The translations under genes were made by a program, and so were the position numbers. The notes below the pieces were generated by a model. The model did no database searches. It was not told the DNA's origin and saw nothing but the letters and a program-made list of their open reading frames with translations. Positions 56,800 through 64,000 of a DNA stretch of 64,000 bases are shown piece by piece (the first letter of the stretch is position 1; each line of letters opens with the position of its first letter). This stretch comes from Ferruginibacter sp. (GTDB taxonomy: Bacteria; Bacteroidota; Bacteroidia; Chitinophagales; Chitinophagaceae), in contig JAXLUF010000008.1 in the NCBI GenBank assembly GCA_046329685.1, positions 7,108 to 71,107 of the forward strand, written 5' to 3'.

Positions 56800-58449
56800 T
56801 TACTCCAGACCGCTCAGCACAAATGCGTTTCCGTTCCATTGAATATATTCCCGGTAGCTGTTAAATCCCCGCCCTTTGCATTTAACACATTTCTTTTGAA
56901 CCACCACTTCCCGCTGGCTGTCGGGTTCTTTTACTTCCACCGTTTCGGTAGTGGTAACCGGCCTGGTTGTTTTTACCCACTCATAGCTGTTCGTTGCAGG
57001 GTTCCATACTCTTTCCTGTTCAACTTTTTTAGAGGTGTTTTTTACCGTTTTATAACTCACCTTACCCTCCACCTTTTCTGTTTTGGTTTCACTGATATAG
57101 CCCACCCCCTTGCATAAGGTGCAGCGGCTGGAATCTGACCGTTCGAACCGGATATCGGCGGGGTTATTGAATTTGACCAGCGAATAAAGATTATTCCTGA
57201 ACTCAACAGCATAATTTTTAAACCGGAAGGGCAGGGCCATCCGTTTGCCGTTGAGACCATTCACGAGTACCAGTGTATTGGCACTGTCGGTAAGCACGGT
57301 GGGTACGGCCATCTTTTCTCCCGGCCAGGGAGCATTGCTCATCTGCAGCCGGATATAGTTTTCGGCGGGCAGGAGATCGTAATGAAATTCCACAGCGCTG
57401 GTGCCGGCATTGAAATACATTTTGGTTTCTTTCTCGCCGTAAAAAATATCAATGCCCTGGGTGAAAAAATCATAGTAGCCATCCATTTTTCTGAATGCAA
57501 AATTCACCGGCTTTCCGTTTACCTGCAGGATCCTGCCCGAGCCATCTTCCCTGAACTCAGCCTCTATAAACTGATGAAGGGTTTTACGGGTGAGGGCAGC
57601 GGTATTGGTTTGCTGTTGATTGACATTTTTTATTATTACGGCAGCCTGATCCGGGGGCAGGAGGAGATTTCCTACCCTCACCTCCCTGCTGCCATCGGGC
57701 AGGGTGCCGATCACATAGGAGTAACTGTTATCATTGGTTTTGCCTGTTTCTTCGATGCTGGTATACTTCGGGTCTACCGATACAGCCGCACCAATGGTAT
57801 AGCCCTTCAGGTTGCCGGCACCCTGGGTGATCACCAGTTTATCAGCGGCGTTTTTATAGTGGCCCGGTTCAATCAGCCGGTTCCCCTGGTTATCTAAGAG
57901 GCCGGTGCCTGCCGCCGTTTGTACCAATACATAATTATCATTGTCCTGGAATTTGCTGAGCACCGGCGGTTGTGCGTACTCCGCTTTAACTGTTTTATAA
58001 TCATAGGAGTCATAGGGCCGGTCCCAATAAATAAAGCAGCCCCATTTTCCGTTTGATTTATAAGCGAAGAAATTTTTCATGGTGGCTTCATCCTTTACCT
58101 GGATTTCGGTTACATCGGTTGCCACCACGTTGAATTTATAAAACGGACTGGCAGCAGAGCGGAAATACCGGGCGATATCATAGGTTGAATCCTTCCAGCA
58201 TTTGTAATAAAGTGGAAATTGTTTTCCGCCGAAGTCAATGGCCGTTATTTTGTTGTAAACGGGCTTTACAAACCATTCCTTCCATTGTTTTACCGATTCG
58301 TTGATGAAGCCATATTTGTCGTTTTCCGTTTTGATCACAGACCGTATCTCCCGGGAAGGTTTAGCGTCGGTTTGTGCGTAAGTAAGTGCCGGCATGCCTG
58401 TTAAAGCAGTGCATAGCAAGAGCAGGTGAAGCAGGTGTTTGTTTTTCAT
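56800..58449 (-). CDS. Hypothetical secreted protein with WG-like repeats and a C-terminal CxxCxGxG pair
   Basis: Signal peptide; KYGFIN, GKWGCF, GLLDNQG; CTLCKGVG...CVKCKGRG. Confidence 0.7.
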   Translation of the reverse strand: MKNKHLLHLLLLCTALTGMPALTYAQTDAKPSREIRSVIKTENDKYGFINESVKQWKEWFVKPVYNKITAIDFGGKQFPLYYKCWKDSTYDIARYFRSAASPFYKFNVVATDVTEIQVKDEATMKNFFAYKSNGKWGCFIYWDRPYDSYDYKTVKAEYAQPPVLSKFQDNDNYVLVQTAAGTGLLDNQGNRLIEPGHYKNAADKLVITQGAGNLKGYTIGAAVSVDPKYTSIEETGKTNDNSYSYVIGTLPDGSREVRVGNLLLPPDQAAVIIKNVNQQQTNTAALTRKTLHQFIEAEFREDGSGRILQVNGKPVNFAFRKMDGYYDFFTQGIDIFYGEKETKMYFNAGTSAVEFHYDLLPAENYIRLQMSNAPWPGEKMAVPTVLTDSANTLVLVNGLNGKRMALPFRFKNYAVEFRNNLYSLVKFNNPADIRFERSDSSRCTLCKGVGYISETKTEKVEGKVSYKTVKNTSKKVEQERVWNPATNSYEWVKTTRPVTTTETVEVKEPDSQREVVVQKKCVKCKGRGFNSYREYIQWNGNAFVLSGLE

Positions 58450-58566
58450 ACGCAATGAGTGCAGTCGGTTAAGCAATCAATGGCAAAAATAAAAAGGCAG
58501 GTTTAAAAAGACAAAAGATTGGCAATCAACTGTCAGGGCACTGCTGATAACAGCTGCTCCCATTCC

Positions 58567-58821
58567 CCGCAGAGTCTCCCCCCGGGCAATGAGCGTGGCC
58601 GGGACTCTGCGGCAACGCAATCCCAATAACACCCATAAAATTAATCAGCACTAAATCCTAACTTCAGGGACACAAATGGCTGTCCGTACCCAAATCACAG
58701 AAAATAATGGAATTTATTTCATCAACATCATCTGGAGCAAGAGGAAATTAACCTGACATAATTTGGGAACCCGATACGCAGAGTCCCTGGCCACGCACAT
58801 GGCTAAGGAGGAGACTCTGCG
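58567..58821. mobile_element. Collapsed REP/RAYT (REPtron-like) remnant: two inverted REP-like hairpins flanking a truncated transposase-like ORF
   Basis: CGCAGAGTC...GACTCTGCG hairpins at 58567-58612 and 58777-58821 are inverted copies of one unit. Between them is the 26-aa ORF MAVRTQITENNGIYFI... (58676-58756). Confidence 0.6.
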
Positions 58822-58896
58822 AAGAAGCGAAATTCAAAAGGCTGAAGAAGAAAAGGGGGGAAGGCGTATGCTCCGAATTTTATTGCTGATCATCTC

Positions 58897-60027
58897 TTAA
58901 TGCTTTTTTTTGTCCAGCAGGATGTAATATGCCATCAGCATTAGCAGGATTACAGCGCCAATAATTGTTAATTGCAAGTCGTTGCCAGTATATTTATCGC
59001 CTTTCAGGAAGAAGATTCTTTCAATAACCTTTATAACAACATAGGATACGATCGATGAAATAAACATCAGCTTCGTCATGTTAACGGCTTTCATGGAATT
59101 TTCATTATCATTCGTTTCTTTTCTGCCGCCCAGCAGGGTGATTCTGGTGCTCAGCTGATAATAATTAAAAAAGCCGAAAATGATGAAAAGCGGAAGCAGG
59201 TAAAGAAAAATGTGCTCAGCCGTTTTTAAAATCTGAGTCTCTTCTTCCAGTTTTGATGTTCCGGAATCACCCAGGTGTGCCGGAACGCCTGTTTTAATAA
59301 GGGAACCCCAGACCGTCATCACAATATTCCACAAGGAATAGCTCATGGCGGCAAAAAGGAGGATATAGAAGCCGATGAAAATAAACTTATCGATTAACCG
59401 ATTGCTGTTATCCCTGATATATTCCCATATTTCATGAAGATGGTACTGAAGACTTTGCGTGTTTTGCGGGGTGATCGTTAATGGGGTCACGGACTGAGCG
59501 GTGCCCTCTGTTACCGCAACGGGGGTTTCAGCTGCAGCGGCTTCCCTGGGTGCCGCAGCCGCTTCACGCGATTGCAGCTTCAGCAAATTCTTGATTATTT
59601 TGGCAAGATCATTCGGAAAATTCCGCACACCGCGATCATATTTACTGAACGGGATTATTTTATCAACCCGTGAACCCACAAACTGATCAGATATTTCGGT
59701 GTTTGAAATCAGTATTATATAAAAGTCATCAAACCGGTTTGAAGCCACATACTTGGCAAATTCCAGGCCAATCCTGTCACTATCGTTTAACAGGTAAACA
59801 TCAATGATATATAAATTGATATGCTTGTAAGCTTCCAGTACACCTTTAAAATCACCCTCAATAAGTTTTCCGAGCAGGTAATTATTGTTGTTAAAAGACT
59901 CGTCGTTGTCGGAAAGCGATTTTGGGAATACCTGAATATCATTCTTGAAATGAGCTTCCAGGGTGCTCTTGATTGCAATGAAATGATCTGTGGTGTTCTC
60001 AATCAGTAATATGCTTTTTGGGCTCAT
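58897..60027 (-). CDS. Response-regulator receiver domain fused to a 4-TM membrane domain
   Basis: ILLIEN (beta1), YIIDVYL (phospho-Asp), RIGLEFA, IILISN, FSK; Ala/Pro/Thr linker; four hydrophobic helices at the C-terminus. Confidence 0.75.
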   Translation of the reverse strand: MSPKSILLIENTTDHFIAIKSTLEAHFKNDIQVFPKSLSDNDESFNNNNYLLGKLIEGDFKGVLEAYKHINLYIIDVYLLNDSDRIGLEFAKYVASNRFDDFYIILISNTEISDQFVGSRVDKIIPFSKYDRGVRNFPNDLAKIIKNLLKLQSREAAAAPREAAAAETPVAVTEGTAQSVTPLTITPQNTQSLQYHLHEIWEYIRDNSNRLIDKFIFIGFYILLFAAMSYSLWNIVMTVWGSLIKTGVPAHLGDSGTSKLEEETQILKTAEHIFLYLLPLFIIFGFFNYYQLSTRITLLGGRKETNDNENSMKAVNMTKLMFISSIVSYVVIKVIERIFFLKGDKYTGNDLQLTIIGAVILLMLMAYYILLDKKKH

Positions 60028-63000
60028 TTTCAGCTTTTTTTAGTGTTAATATCAGGGTAAAATCCTCCGCCGTATCGGAGGTCTTGATGGTTCCGATTTT
60101 TGAGTTCTCCAGTATATTCCGGATCATACCCAGACCGCCGCTGGTTGTTTTTCGCTGACTGGAATAATTGACGATACTGGCTTTCCTGTTCTTAAAGAAA
60201 AATGTATTTGTGTCGGCCAAATACTCGATTTCGAGCCGGCGGTCTCCGTACCGGGGTGAATACTTCTTCATATTCCGGATCACTTCCGGAATGATCACTT
60301 CTTTTACAACCTTGCTCATGGCGAGATGCTGAAAACTAAATCCGGTAAGGGTTACTTTTTCAAACGGAATCTTATAAGATCCCACCCGGGTTGATTCGAA
60401 GAGCAGGCGGATGGTCTTTACAATTTCCACCTGCGAATAGCGCACCTGCTTCCTGATATTGTCGGAGCTTTCTACCTGTAATAATTGCCCTTTAATAGCA
60501 TTTATAATGATATTAAAAAGCTCTGTTTTGTCTTCACTGATTTTCGACTCCTGGTTGATTTCATCAAACAGGTACTCGAGGTGATCGGTGTATTCAGATA
60601 TGCCATGCCGCAAACTGCTCTGATAATTGTTTGCATTACGCCTTTGCAGAACGTCAATAAAGGCATCATTGTCAAACTGTTTTTGGAGATAGGCCAGGAG
60701 CTCGGTTTTCAGCAATAAAACCAGCCGCACCTTCTCATTGCTGACGAATTCCCAGAAACTGGTTTTGGGGGCATTGTTTTTGGGAACAATAACCAGTACT
60801 GCCTGGCCCTCTATCCTGAGCCCGCTGCTGGCTTCCGGACTTATTTCAAAATTGGCAAACCGGAATAACATAGCCATCCGGGCATGATCAAGCAATTTCA
60901 GGCCGGTGCCGGTTTCTTCATTAAAATGATCCTTCTTGAGCATTTCCTCAAACGTCTCATGCCGCACTTCATTTTCCAGCTTAAAATAATATTTCTCTGC
61001 AAATGAAACAGGGGCAGCGTTATCCGCTTTGTAGCAGGCCAGGAACGACTGCACATTCCTGCAATCTTTATCATCATACAGGCCATAAAGCAGCCGGTAC
61101 AGTAACCCCTGGGGGTTTAACATGAGGTTACGCTGATTTTTTTTGGATGGGTCGTTCGTGATGGCATAGATGTTTTCGGAACCCCGGTCGTATTTGCTTT
61201 TCTTCCGGTACTCTACAAAAAAGGCGTAATCAAAACCACTCGTATCCTTTAAAAAGGTGGAGGGAACCTGCGGACTGCTCTTTCCCTGATCTCTCCAGAA
61301 CTCCTGCTGCTCGGGCGCCAGGATTTTCAGCAGGGAGGTTATTATTTCATTCAATTCAATATCAAGATCAAAATCGGCCCTGTGAAAATCTTTCCGGTTC
61401 TTTTTACGTTCCAGCAGGCCGGCGGTATACAGCATGTTGCAAACAGAGTATTTTAAACCCAGGAACGCTTCACTGGTAAGGCCGGCAGCAGCATATCTTG
61501 AATGACTGATCAGCTTGAGGGCACTCAATATGATGGGATCATTTTTCTTCTTCTTGAAATAATACGACAAAATGCTGCGCCGGGAAATAAGGTGCTCCGG
61601 CAGCTCATCTCCTGAAAACTGCAGTAATTGTCTTTTAACATTTTGCTGATGCAGTTCCTTCAGCGAAGTGAGAAGAATGCTGTTTTCGGCTTTCAGCATC
61701 CCTGTAAAATGGAAATAGGGGCTCGAAAGTATATGGGAAATGCCGGCATCATTTTCTGCAAAGGAGCTCCGGTCTATCGGCAATAAGGTGGCTGAGTTCA
61801 GCAGGCTTTCGAGCCGGATAGACCTGTTGGGGTTTCTGACAGACAGTTCCTTGAACTGCATCAGAAGAAAGCGGAAATACCTTTCCACCTGGCTTTGCTT
61901 GTAAGTAATATTATTAACGGCCGTCCGGTGCAGCGCTGCCGAAATTTTGTTTTCAGACCTGAGCGCATCCAGTTTTGCGAGCAGCCGGGAATAATGTTTT
62001 TTGATCTGCACATTCCTGCTTTTGTGATATTGCACCTTGATGCAGCTTAAAAACCGCTCAGAAATAATAAAGTTGGAATTAAGGTCCACAAGCCGCTTTA
62101 TGTAAAACTTCAGTTGCCTGAAAATGTGAAAGGAATGAAGCCCGTCTTTTTCAATCCCCTTATGAATTTGCATAAGCCGGTAAGAACAGTAGCCGAAAAT
62201 GGCAGTGAAGATGTTTTTGTAATAGGTAAAGGGGTAGCGGGAAAGAATTTTTACAATGGTGTCATGGACAATCTCTTCTTCAATTTTCAGGTTACGCAAA
62301 GGAGAGGATTCGGCTTCTTCCCTGACAAAAAACCTGAATACCGAATTCCTGATTTTGTTTTGAATCTTAAAAATTATTTCCACAATAAGCCCCTTAGGAT
62401 CATCCTGGTGTTTTTCAAAAAATCCAATCTTCCCGTATTCTTCTTTGGCGAGCTCCGAATTCAGTTCGTGGGTAAGAAACAGTTTTAACAAATCACTTTT
62501 ATCTCGGGCCAGGTAATGAGAATAAACCTGCAGGCATTCTTCATTGAGGGTTACTTCAATGTCGGAAAACGGGAAATAGTTAAAGGTGCTGCCGGGCCCT
62601 TTCGAGCGGTCGAGTTCGGGAAGAAGTTTCGGATGCTGTAAAATCAGTTCCTCACAAAAGCCCGACCGGACCGTATCCAGGTAACATTGCATTTGCAGCC
62701 GCTGCAGGTCGCGAATGCGCCGTTTGGGCGGGTCGCCCATATGGGTGGCCGAAATGATCGGCACATTTAATTTATAAAAGCAAATAAAGCGGCTGGCATT
62801 TGCTTCCTCATTGTTGTTTTTTTCGGAATGCAGCTTTTTGAGGATTTCATCATATGTAAACAAAGGTGTTCTGTCTACCAGTGTTAACACAAGGTCAAAG
62901 CCGTGGCGTCCCACCTTGTTCGGGGATTCTTTTTTGGCGTGTTTCAGATAATTGCTGATGAGCTTGAATGTTTTCCCGGCCGACATCACATCTTCAAAAT

Positions 63001-64000
63001 AGATCACTTTGATACCCGGGGTGGAGATGGAATTACTGTGGAGGGAGATGAAATTGTCCACAAATTCATTGGATGGCTCAAACGGCAGAATGGTAATCGA
63101 CTTACCCAACAGCGCTTCCGAGATGGAGATGTCTTCAATAAACTTTGAATTATGCTTATTCTCGGCTGTTATAAAAATGATCTCTGTATCCTCCGTGCGC
63201 AGATGCTGTTTCAGCTGATCATTAAAATAGGCCAGGATGGCCGGCTTGTTTTTTTCATAAAAGGCATTACCCCTTATGTAGTTGGTATAGCTGCTTTTAT
63301 TAACCGTTATATGACCATAGAGGTGAGTGCTGCCATACCGTTCATCGGAGGAAAATATGGTATAAAAATCACTTTGTTCCTTTACCCGGCTGAAATTAGG
63401 AAACCCAAAAATCAGGTTGGGGGTTTCATAATTGTCGTGCGTGGGGAATAAGGGTTTTTCATTTTCCTGGCCTCTTATTTCGGGAAAACAGAGCGGGCAT
63501 GACTCGGGCAGGTACATTTCCGAATAGAGTTTCACAATCGGATTGGCAAAATATTCCTTGCCTTCATTATTGTTGAACAGGATCTGGTTGGCCTGTATCT
63601 GCGTCCAGTTAAAAGCCGAATATATCTGGTAAATATTCCGCATTTTTTCATCACTGGCATCCTTATGATCGCTGATAACCACTTTTTCGTTTTCCAGGGG
63701 CTGCAGGGCTTTTTCCAGTATCAGGAAGATATTGATAAACTGATCTTCTACTTCAATATCCGGCCGGTTGAGGTGCGTCCGGACATAATCAAGAATAAAT
63801 TTCCGGAGTTTTATGTACGTGGAACAGGTGCAGGTTACCGGCAGAATAATCAGCAGCTTGTTTTTCAGGATCGGTAAATGCTGCCATACAAACTCGCTGC
63901 CCTCCTGTTCGATGATGGCATAATTATACTTTTCGGATTTTGCCACCACCTTATTAAGAAAGAGCCCTGAGTAGTTCCGGAAACCAATCAAGGTGGTGGC
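59999..64000 (-). CDS. Giant (>1330 aa) protein: tandem phosphoribosyltransferase-like domains, helical region, and C-terminal histidine kinase-like module (N-terminus beyond the window)
   Basis: Frame open at 64000. YLPESCPLC, LYGHIT, VIYFEDVMSAGKT and LVDRT (PyrE-like PRTase); LRHGISEY H-box, EVIRNMKKYS N-box, TSGGLGMI G2-box. Confidence 0.7.
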   Translation of the reverse strand, partial: ATTLIGFRNYSGLFLNKVVAKSEKYNYAIIEQEGSEFVWQHLPILKNKLLIILPVTCTCSTYIKLRKFILDYVRTHLNRPDIEVEDQFINIFLILEKALQPLENEKVVISDHKDASDEKMRNIYQIYSAFNWTQIQANQILFNNNEGKEYFANPIVKLYSEMYLPESCPLCFPEIRGQENEKPLFPTHDNYETPNLIFGFPNFSRVKEQSDFYTIFSSDERYGSTHLYGHITVNKSSYTNYIRGNAFYEKNKPAILAYFNDQLKQHLRTEDTEIIFITAENKHNSKFIEDISISEALLGKSITILPFEPSNEFVDNFISLHSNSISTPGIKVIYFEDVMSAGKTFKLISNYLKHAKKESPNKVGRHGFDLVLTLVDRTPLFTYDEILKKLHSEKNNNEEANASRFICFYKLNVPIISATHMGDPPKRRIRDLQRLQMQCYLDTVRSGFCEELILQHPKLLPELDRSKGPGSTFNYFPFSDIEVTLNEECLQVYSHYLARDKSDLLKLFLTHELNSELAKEEYGKIGFFEKHQDDPKGLIVEIIFKIQNKIRNSVFRFFVREEAESSPLRNLKIEEEIVHDTIVKILSRYPFTYYKNIFTAIFGYCSYRLMQIHKGIEKDGLHSFHIFRQLKFYIKRLVDLNSNFIISERFLSCIKVQYHKSRNVQIKKHYSRLLAKLDALRSENKISAALHRTAVNNITYKQSQVERYFRFLLMQFKELSVRNPNRSIRLESLLNSATLLPIDRSSFAENDAGISHILSSPYFHFTGMLKAENSILLTSLKELHQQNVKRQLLQFSGDELPEHLISRRSILSYYFKKKKNDPIILSALKLISHSRYAAAGLTSEAFLGLKYSVCNMLYTAGLLERKKNRKDFHRADFDLDIELNEIITSLLKILAPEQQEFWRDQGKSSPQVPSTFLKDTSGFDYAFFVEYRKKSKYDRGSENIYAITNDPSKKNQRNLMLNPQGLLYRLLYGLYDDKDCRNVQSFLACYKADNAAPVSFAEKYYFKLENEVRHETFEEMLKKDHFNEETGTGLKLLDHARMAMLFRFANFEISPEASSGLRIEGQAVLVIVPKNNAPKTSFWEFVSNEKVRLVLLLKTELLAYLQKQFDNDAFIDVLQRRNANNYQSSLRHGISEYTDHLEYLFDEINQESKISEDKTELFNIIINAIKGQLLQVESSDNIRKQVRYSQVEIVKTIRLLFESTRVGSYKIPFEKVTLTGFSFQHLAMSKVVKEVIIPEVIRNMKKYSPRYGDRRLEIEYLADTNTFFFKNRKASIVNYSSQRKTTSGGLGMIRNILENSKIGTIKTSDTAEDFTLILTLKKAENEPKKHITD

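Follow-up and report, generated by a model that had tools for sequence, protein, structure and literature searches.

We analysed a 64,000-nt stretch of DNA from Ferruginibacter sp. (GCA_046329685.1, contig JAXLUF010000008.1, positions 7,108–71,107 of the forward strand), referred to below as the window. At its far end, two overlapping genes on the minus strand encode a large soluble protein, P0004, whose C-terminus resembles a histidine kinase, and a smaller protein, P0002, in which a receiver domain is joined to a putative four-helix transmembrane (TM) domain. We call the pair the cassette, and its two products the kinase and the partner:

59999..64000, minus strand: large soluble kinase gene; the reading frame is open at the window edge (1333 codons)
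58897..60027, minus strand: partner gene, 376 aa (P0002)

The kinase gene continues for 258 nt beyond the window to an ATG at the window-equivalent position 64258, so that the product as called has 1419 aa; residue r of P0004 is residue r − 86 of the open reading frame (ORF) within the window. The overlap between the genes amounts to 29 nt (60027 − 59999 + 1). The GC content of the pair is 0.433, compared to 0.491 in the window at 1–58476, a difference far larger than the variation among 5-kb windows (mean 0.489, standard deviation 0.012). An earlier note, made from the window alone, had described a protein of more than 1330 aa without a TM segment, a 29-nt overlap of its stop with the receiver gene, and a pair of genes more AT-rich than their surroundings. 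All of this was recovered: the overlap was recomputed from the ORF coordinates, the N-terminus was completed with the retrieved upstream sequence, and no TM segment was found in P0004, for which the maximum 19-residue Kyte–Doolittle mean is 1.32. The motifs quoted in that note likewise all re-translate in place.

The sequence libraries contain no match for either protein. Pfam, NCBIfam and PADLOC returned nothing for P0004 or P0002 at E values up to 1. Pfam was equally empty at that limit for 35 members of the kinase family (26 plus 9 distant), none of which reached the Pfam threshold for HisKA or HATPase_c. No model of PADLOC v2.0.0, a release in which the presence of Detocs models is unconfirmed, matched any of the 31 members tested. 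The families thus scanned without a match include PDC-M65 as well as Pfam PF22561/PF22563 and PF19191/PF19192. Searches of the Protein Data Bank (PDB) with phmmer and with full-length profiles gave no match for either protein. The corresponding domain-profile searches gave weak matches for the receiver (best natural E 0.0067) and for the kinase core (to VicK, E 0.011), and none for the second N-terminal unit or the TM domain. Screens of all six reading frames of the genome with Response_reg (PF00072), HATPase_c (PF02518) and Pribosyltran (PF00156) found dozens of ordinary genes and missed the cassette locus. Because the libraries were silent, the domain calls were tested by structure prediction and profile–profile comparison. 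AlphaFold (AF2) models were built from family alignments for residues 1–560 and 960–1419 of P0004.

Domains of the large protein

From N- to C-terminus, the following regions were distinguished in P0004:

63482..64000, minus strand: phosphoribosyltransferase (PRTase)-fold unit 1, P0004 ~13–259; the first 86 residues of the protein lie outside the window
62759..63361, minus strand: PRTase-like unit 2, P0004 ~300–500
61364..62731, minus strand: conserved middle region, P0004 ~510–965, defined by its conservation profile; no Pfam or PDB match
60782..61240, minus strand: α/β sensor-like domain, P0004 ~1007–1159, upstream of the kinase core
60479..60766, minus strand: helical hairpin of the DHp, carrying His1218 (codon 60605–60607) as the predicted phospho-acceptor
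60026..60457, minus strand: CA (Bergerat-fold ATP-binding) domain with N-box E1325/N1329, N1357 and G2 box GGLGM (G1375)

The model of the N-terminal region (residues 1–560; m9ccab503e36f) has a mean predicted local distance difference test score (pLDDT) of 80. Foldseek matched this model to type I PRTases. Structural comparison with VIA gave 4paw as the best match to unit 1 (Z 14.5, root-mean-square deviation (RMSD) 2.9 Å, 191 residues aligned). Chains of OPRT, PurR, APRT and XPRT matched with Z 10–13.7, and all of the top-ranking matches corresponded to model residues 13–259. As modelled, unit 1 is a PRTase fold, comprised of a parallel five-stranded sheet core and a hood. Comparison with PRTase profiles by hhalign (E 0.06–0.6) supports this relationship at the level of the fold only, and Pfam PF00156 matches neither of the two units. 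The loop that in PRTases binds phosphoribosyl pyrophosphate (PRPP) is degenerate in unit 1: within the motif LIILPVTCTCST at 63818–63853, the acidic pair is replaced by LP and TGxT by TCTCST. The YLPESCPLC motif of unit 1 re-translates at 63488–63514 and includes a CxxC (residues 254–257) that is invariant in the family. PRTase folds are used as ligand sensors in PyrR and in the PurR of B. subtilis, which responds to PRPP and ppGpp, and unit 1 superposes on the PRTase domain of PurR (1p4a, 7rmw) with Z 11.9–12.2. In PurR, however, the PRTase fold is joined to a DNA-binding domain, whereas in the cassette it is joined to a histidine kinase. Compared to these sensors, unit 1 is without the acidic residues of the PRPP loop, and it is not a member of their families at the level of sequence.

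Unit 2 has an intact PRPP-loop motif, VIYFEDVMSAGKT (62969–63007), which is followed by LVDRT. The loop has the pattern of a hydrophobic strand, two acidic residues and T/S-x-G-x-T, with the acidic pair reading DD in distant members of the family. Comparison by hhalign with 26 PRTases from related genomes gave an E of 1.1e-4 and a probability of 54–56% over 115–117 columns, spanning β1, the PRPP loop and the next strand. In the N-terminal model, the unit 2 region has a β-α-β topology in an order matching that of PRTases. PRPP synthetase consists of tandem PRTase-like halves, and Foldseek aligned it to both units over 412 columns. The unit 2 region falls outside the top structural matches of the 1–560 model, all of which are taken up by unit 1. 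From its motifs, its topology in the joint model and the weak hhalign match, unit 2 is likely to be a PRTase fold as well. A direct comparison of the two units by hhalign gave an E of 0.58, so that an internal duplication is undetectable by this method.

PRTases are described as effectors in several defence systems, including type III retrons, ShosTA, PsyrTA and Ophion (bioRxiv 10.1101/2025.09.30.679545). The type III retron effector, ShosT, PsyrT and the OpnC protein of Ophion likewise contain a PRTase-fold domain within a defence-island system, but these are single-domain effectors or toxins, whereas the PRTase-like units of the cassette form a tandem module at the N-terminus of a kinase. 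The PADLOC retron and ShosTA models did not match the cassette. We considered the possibility that unit 2 is itself a working enzyme, which upon activation would consume PRPP or make an aberrant or signalling nucleotide, as defence PRTases of the ShosT type reportedly do, while the kinase, receiver and membrane parts would regulate, localise or quench it. The acidic pair (E422/D423) and the S/T-x-G-x-T loop are kept in unit 2, with DD in the distant branches, and there is the precedent of the defence effectors cited above. We nevertheless regard this explanation as quite improbable. Unit 2 matches PRTase profiles weakly, is missed by PF00156 and provides no evidence for base-binding hood residues. 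Sensor kinases normally take their input through the N-terminal region, and phosphate is passed on from the kinase to the receiver. The receiver–TM protein, moreover, is an invariably linked, terminal component of the cassette.

The model of the C-terminal region (residues 960–1419; m5b05bf70f18b) has a mean pLDDT of 77. The α/β domain is formed by strands and helices at model residues 50–200, with pLDDT values mostly of 80–94 over residues 100–180, and Foldseek alignments to phytochromes, YF1 and VicK (300–320 columns) extend upstream of the DHp into this region. The domain is placed before the DHp as PAS and GAF domains are, and in the model it may at best be called PAS/GAF-like. Of the GAF-like segment suspected in the earlier note, the model thus supports an α/β domain at this position, but not a GAF type.

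The kinase core itself is better defined. The H-box, LRHGISEY, re-translates at 60590–60613 and includes H1218, which is invariant in 30 sequences and sits in a long helix (model residues 239–277); VIA alignments to YycG, AgrC, HK853 and DivL begin at model residues 238–262. The N-box, EVIRNMKKYS, is found at 60257–60286 (N1329 codon at 60272–60274) and the G2-box, TTSGGLGM, at 60125–60148. The DHp–CA model could be superimposed by VIA on SrrB, ThkA, AgrC, YycG and HK853 with Z 12–13 and an RMSD of 2.6–3.9 Å over 120–190 residues, and the top 50 VIA matches to the CA domain were all kinase CA domains, nearly all of them from histidine kinases. For the C-terminal model, Foldseek returned histidine kinases only (E 4e-8 to 1e-5, probability 1.0), including phytochrome kinase modules, WalK, YF1, VicK, SrrB, HK853 and CpxA. 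Comparison of the C-terminus with the genome's own kinases by hhalign (92–93%, E 3–5e-7) aligned the N and G2 boxes. Along with H1218, residues N1329, N1357 and G1375 are invariant in 30 homologues whose identity falls to 16–20%; invariance among sequences this divergent shows that the kinase motifs are more than chance resemblances.

The canonical G1 box (DxGxG, with the adenine-binding Asp) and the F box are not present, and the G1 position has neither a conserved Asp nor a conserved Gly. The invariant N1357 lies on the strand preceding the disordered lid. In lacking the two boxes, the protein genuinely differs from typical kinases, and ATP binding and kinase activity are consequently not assured. 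The G1 box of AgrC-type kinases is likewise non-canonical. The cassette kinase shares with these HPK10-like proteins a compact CA domain containing N and G2 boxes (6e95, Z 12.9; 4bxi, Z 12.4). AgrC, however, is a peptide receptor in the membrane and has a LytTR regulator under its control. As modelled, the C-terminus of P0004 is a divergent histidine-kinase DHp–CA core, and kinase activity is predicted for it.

The architecture proposed in the earlier note, in which tandem PRTases are joined through a long helical region and a possible GAF-like segment to a kinase that is coupled to a receiver–membrane protein, is thus supported by fold or profile for unit 1, the α/β domain, the DHp–CA core and the receiver–4TM protein (described below). 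For the N-terminal pair, the PRTase fold stands for unit 1 and is likely for unit 2, with the motif and the weak profile match as its support.

The receiver–membrane partner and its pairing with the kinase

P0002 is divided into three parts:

59578..60027, minus strand: receiver domain, P0002 1–150, with E10, D76 (codon 59800–59802), S108 and K129
59416..59577, minus strand: variable Ala/Pro/Thr-rich linker; poorly aligned columns of variable length
58897..59415, minus strand: four-TM output domain, P0002 ~205–376, from hydropathy and alignment

Pfam Response_reg (PF00072) does not match the partner. When compared with 12 receiver domains from the same genome by hhalign, however, the N-terminal part matched at 95.7% (E 9.4e-9), with D76 in the column of the phospho-accepting Asp and K129 in that of the conserved β5 Lys. 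In an alignment of 14 full-length homologues, D76 and K129 are invariant down to 16–21% identity, while E10 is conserved in at least 90%. D76 is placed at the end of β3, K129 at that of β5 and the acidic E10 after β1, while S108, the Ser/Thr that follows β4, lies within the sequence IIIIS. The spacing between D76, S108 and K129 is 32 and 21 residues, close to that of the counterparts in CheY (30 and 22). An insert of ~20 residues between β1 and β3 is specific to the family. The PDB profile search with the receiver returned mostly response regulators, all of them weak matches.

The linker coincides with the point at which the receiver and the TM part are split into two ORFs in other lineages. 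Within it, the DNA carries a tandem duplication at 59520–59570 (P0002 ~153–170), in which 17-nt copies lie 21 nt apart (AAAAPREAAAAE); the linkers of the homologues are unrelated in sequence and differ in length. The TM segments of the output domain are at ~213–237, 270–290, 319–341 and 354–371, and the domain has conserved polar residues at E271, K319, K333 and E336. No relative of the TM domain was found in Pfam, PADLOC or the PDB.

In each of the 24 loci (23 of them distinct) with sequence beyond the 3′ end of the kinase gene, a receiver homologue lies directly downstream and begins at, or overlaps, the kinase stop. The co-occurrence of kinase and receiver, for which the earlier note had asked, therefore holds in every locus that could be checked. 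The TM part is fused to the receiver in most loci and is a separate, following ORF in several lineages. The stand-alone receivers at five loci (L069, L071, L072, L083 and L084) are the split-off receiver of the partner rather than an additional one. Separate, adjacent receiver and four-TM ORFs were seen in two Kordia genomes (L083 and L084) and at L069 and L072. The presence of the split in two independent Kordia assemblies argues for a natural three-gene form and against a sequencing error. The unit consists of a kinase, a receiver and a membrane protein, of which the last two are fused in this branch.

Prediction of a complex between the DHp–CA core and the receiver gave a score of 0.76, compared to 0.01 for the best control. 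Of 80 solved complexes, 58 attained this mark, as did two of 110 mismatched pairs. The runs, in which the kinase was given as a monomer, had at least 61% of contacts in common, with a partner pLDDT of at least 82. Since structures of kinase–regulator complexes have already been solved, the pass may reflect likeness to these. The confident contacts connect the active-site loops and the insert of the receiver to the CA domain, and not to the helix carrying His1218.

This placement of the contacts would fit a C-terminal GHKL-type domain that is an ATPase or pseudokinase scaffold, with an unphosphorylated receiver and a ligand-driven protein–protein interaction in place of phosphotransfer. The lack of the G1 and F boxes, the Glu four residues before the N-box Asn, and the failure of Pfam HisKA, HATPase_c and Response_reg to match either protein are also consistent with such a scaffold. 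Set against this are the invariance of His1218 in 30 sequences and of D76 and K129 in 14, down to 16–21% identity, and the fact that the best 50 structural matches are all kinase CA domains, that of the divergent AgrC included. We consider the scaffold the least probable of the explanations discussed here.

Distribution, relation to Detocs and possible function

A word-based search yielded 33 kinase homologues, all of them unannotated and without Pfam domains. When 1.84 billion representatives were searched exhaustively with a profile, this identified 336 clusters (50% identity) at E <1e-3, 152 of them at E <1e-30. All of the clusters consist of long proteins, some of which have 700–1100 additional N-terminal residues (2000–2300-aa forms). 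The named hosts are Chitinophagaceae, Segetibacter, Parafilimonas, Pseudobacter, Dyadobacter, Kordia and Flavobacterium. None of 60 further congeneric genomes, of which 41 are at least 90% complete, yielded the kinase gene. Sampling of 150 genera of the family gave one distant match, and the gene was found in two of 400 other genomes sampled across the phylum (~0.5%). The flanking genes differ at every locus. The cassette is thus patchily distributed, island-borne and horizontally moving, and does not belong to a vertically conserved core, an outcome in favour of the earlier note.

In this genome, the low-GC tract around the cassette continues for ~25 kb and includes restriction–modification (RM) and other conflict genes (see the last section). 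RM genes also adjoin the cassette at three other loci (L004, L067 and L071), and an integrase at a fourth (L006). The association with defence islands is unquantified and suggestive. At L006 (14400–18400), the precomputed Pfam annotation shows that the homologous cassette is adjoined by a tyrosine integrase and by several toxin-like genes in a row, including DUF4123, a phospholipase-like gene, a guanylate-cyclase domain and an Anthrax_toxA-like domain.

Could the cassette be a physiological two-component system with no role in immunity? The tandem PRTases would then monitor the internal state of the cell (PRPP, nucleotides or (p)ppGpp), and the receiver, once phosphorylated, would gate a small membrane channel or transporter, adjusting the flux of ions or metabolites. 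PRTase folds are established metabolite sensors, and PurR (PRPP/ppGpp) and XPRT (ppGpp) are among the matches to unit 1. In addition, no match to a known toxin family was obtained with the membrane domain, and four contexts (L003, L005, L068 and L070) contain only housekeeping neighbours. A physiological role fits poorly, however, with the extreme patchiness (none of 60 congeners, ~0.5% of the phylum sample), with the low GC content and varying flanks, and with the adjoining RM systems and integrase. Furthermore, no conserved transporter or metabolic gene accompanies the cassette in the loci examined. We therefore consider such a role unlikely.

On balance, the gene pair is most likely a self-contained, horizontally acquired phosphorelay for defence against phages or mobile elements, a reading in which we have moderate confidence. 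The precedent is Detocs, a phage defence system consisting of the sensor kinase DtcA, the stand-alone receiver DtcB and the receiver–effector DtcC, in which mutation of the His or the Asp abolishes protection (Rousset et al., bioRxiv 10.1101/2023.01.24.525353). Some Detocs operons carry TM effectors, and a variant with a TM α/β hydrolase protects E. coli (bioRxiv 10.1101/2023.01.24.525353). A relay from a kinase to a receiver–effector can therefore protect, and the effector can be a TM domain, which argues for a defensive role of the cassette. The statement in the earlier note that no comparable system had been characterised was too strong, since Detocs phosphorelays, the variants with TM effectors included, were already established.

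In both systems, a cytoplasmic histidine kinase adjoins a receiver that is fused to a non-transcriptional, presumably cell-damaging effector, and both have a patchy distribution and a defence-island setting. The sensor of DtcA, however, is made of tetratricopeptide repeats (TPR), whereas that of the cassette is the tandem PRTase-fold module, without a TPR match in Pfam. The cassette has two genes and, in this branch, no DtcB buffer receiver, and its output is a bare four-TM domain that matches no known family. Its kinase and receiver are also too divergent for Pfam and PADLOC; the comparison with DtcA and DtcC made here is one of described features. The cassette thus probably resembles Detocs in its working, and we do not claim that it belongs to Detocs.

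A possible course of events is as follows. The input would be the N-terminal PRTase-fold pair of the 1419-aa cytoplasmic protein, in which the PRPP/ribose-5-phosphate loop retained by unit 2 is the probable binding site of a phosphoribosyl compound, be it PRPP, a nucleotide or an alarmone, the corresponding loop of unit 1 having been lost. The signal would pass through the conserved middle region and the PAS/GAF-like domain to the divergent DHp–CA core, which would autophosphorylate on His1218 and transfer the phosphoryl group to Asp76 in the receiver of the partner. Phosphorylation would then switch the four-helix membrane domain, probably to an ion-leaking or membrane-disrupting state, and the infected cell would stop growing. 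No transcription step would be involved in such an output.

Several observations weigh against a defensive phosphorelay of this kind. A buffer receiver like DtcB, by which a toxic output could be held in check, is lacking. The missing G1 and F boxes put ATP binding in question, and the predicted contacts of the receiver avoid the His1218 helix. The likely PRTase fold of unit 2 is drawn from the joint model and a weak profile match, and the membrane domain from hydropathy and alignment. PADLOC is silent on the 31 members tested. No defence genes are found within 8–10 kb of the cassette at L003, L005, L068 and L070, and a pattern-limited scan of the IMG/VR viral contigs gave no relative. What the analysis shows directly is how the domains fold and compare by profile, that catalytic residues are conserved, that the genes are obligately paired, and that they are patchily distributed and set in a defence island; the ligand, kinase activity, phosphotransfer, membrane action and a role against phages are inferred.

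A more specific proposal, which we put forward as tentative, is that the cassette represents an unnamed superfamily (at least 336 clusters) in which the tandem PRTases are an immune sensor of phosphoribosyl metabolites perturbed by infection, wired by His–Asp transfer to a new four-helix membrane effector. If so, both a class of sensors and a class of effectors would be new to bacterial immunity, and the sensing of infection would be tied to the PRPP and nucleotide economy through a PRTase-fold receptor. As a defence system, the cassette would constitute a second, independent lineage of phosphorelay immunity after Detocs. A PRTase-fold input has, as far as we found, not been described for histidine kinases in the literature searched, and a full-text search found no description of a PRTase–kinase with a receiver–TM partner. 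The cassette would also provide a compact two-gene system in which to study how phosphorylation of a receiver gates a membrane protein without transcription. Pfam, NCBIfam and PADLOC detect neither protein, so that several hundred clusters of this family escape current annotation pipelines; with profiles made from the present alignments, they would become findable.

Genes and repeats around the cassette

The features identified on either side of the cassette are the following:

L002 8121–9595 (C8:72120–73594), just outside the window: GNAT acetyltransferase; HTH_3 ORF overlapping a Gp49-like (HigB-type) ORF; tRNA-Asn (GTT)
L073 903–2625 (C8:79902–81624): NADAR protein (PADLOC PDC-M42C-like, E 4e-12) overlapping a PRTase-CE protein (PF24390, E 1e-41)
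L073 2934–3869: Mrr-type restriction enzyme (PDC-S02 / mREase_IV)
L073 6138–7949: FRG-domain protein with TPR repeats (PDC-S15)
58563–58603 / 58786–58826, no strand assigned: imperfect inverted repeat with 41-nt arms, 78% complementary and 182 nt apart, bounding the 3′ side of the cassette

The GNAT gene, the HTH_3/Gp49-like pair, which is HigBA-like, and the tRNA-Asn are situated between the cassette and a type I RM system, and the low-GC tract extends to either side of the tRNA-Asn. We searched for a direct repeat of the 3′ end of this tRNA, which could serve as an att-like boundary of an integrated element, and found none. Further along, the NADAR/PRTase-CE pair is a candidate for a second PRTase-containing conflict module in the same island. 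Kinship between the PRTase-CE protein and the units of P0004 was considered and rejected, as the match (E 0.06) was confined to the PRPP loop. Between the Mrr-type and FRG–TPR genes there is a 341-aa ORF that belongs to no family.

Directly downstream of the cassette, a 558-aa protein without a match in Pfam or PADLOC is encoded on the minus strand at 56800–58476 of the window. It was not found in 40 other congeneric genomes and could therefore not be used to locate the empty site in these; its absence there suggests that it may also belong to the accessory region. On the other side, a hairpin (GGGCCCCCGCAAGGGGGGGGCC) is present in a GC-rich intergenic stretch upstream of the kinase gene (L002 7480–7680). 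With the inverted repeat downstream, GC-rich palindromic elements thus flank the cassette on both sides.

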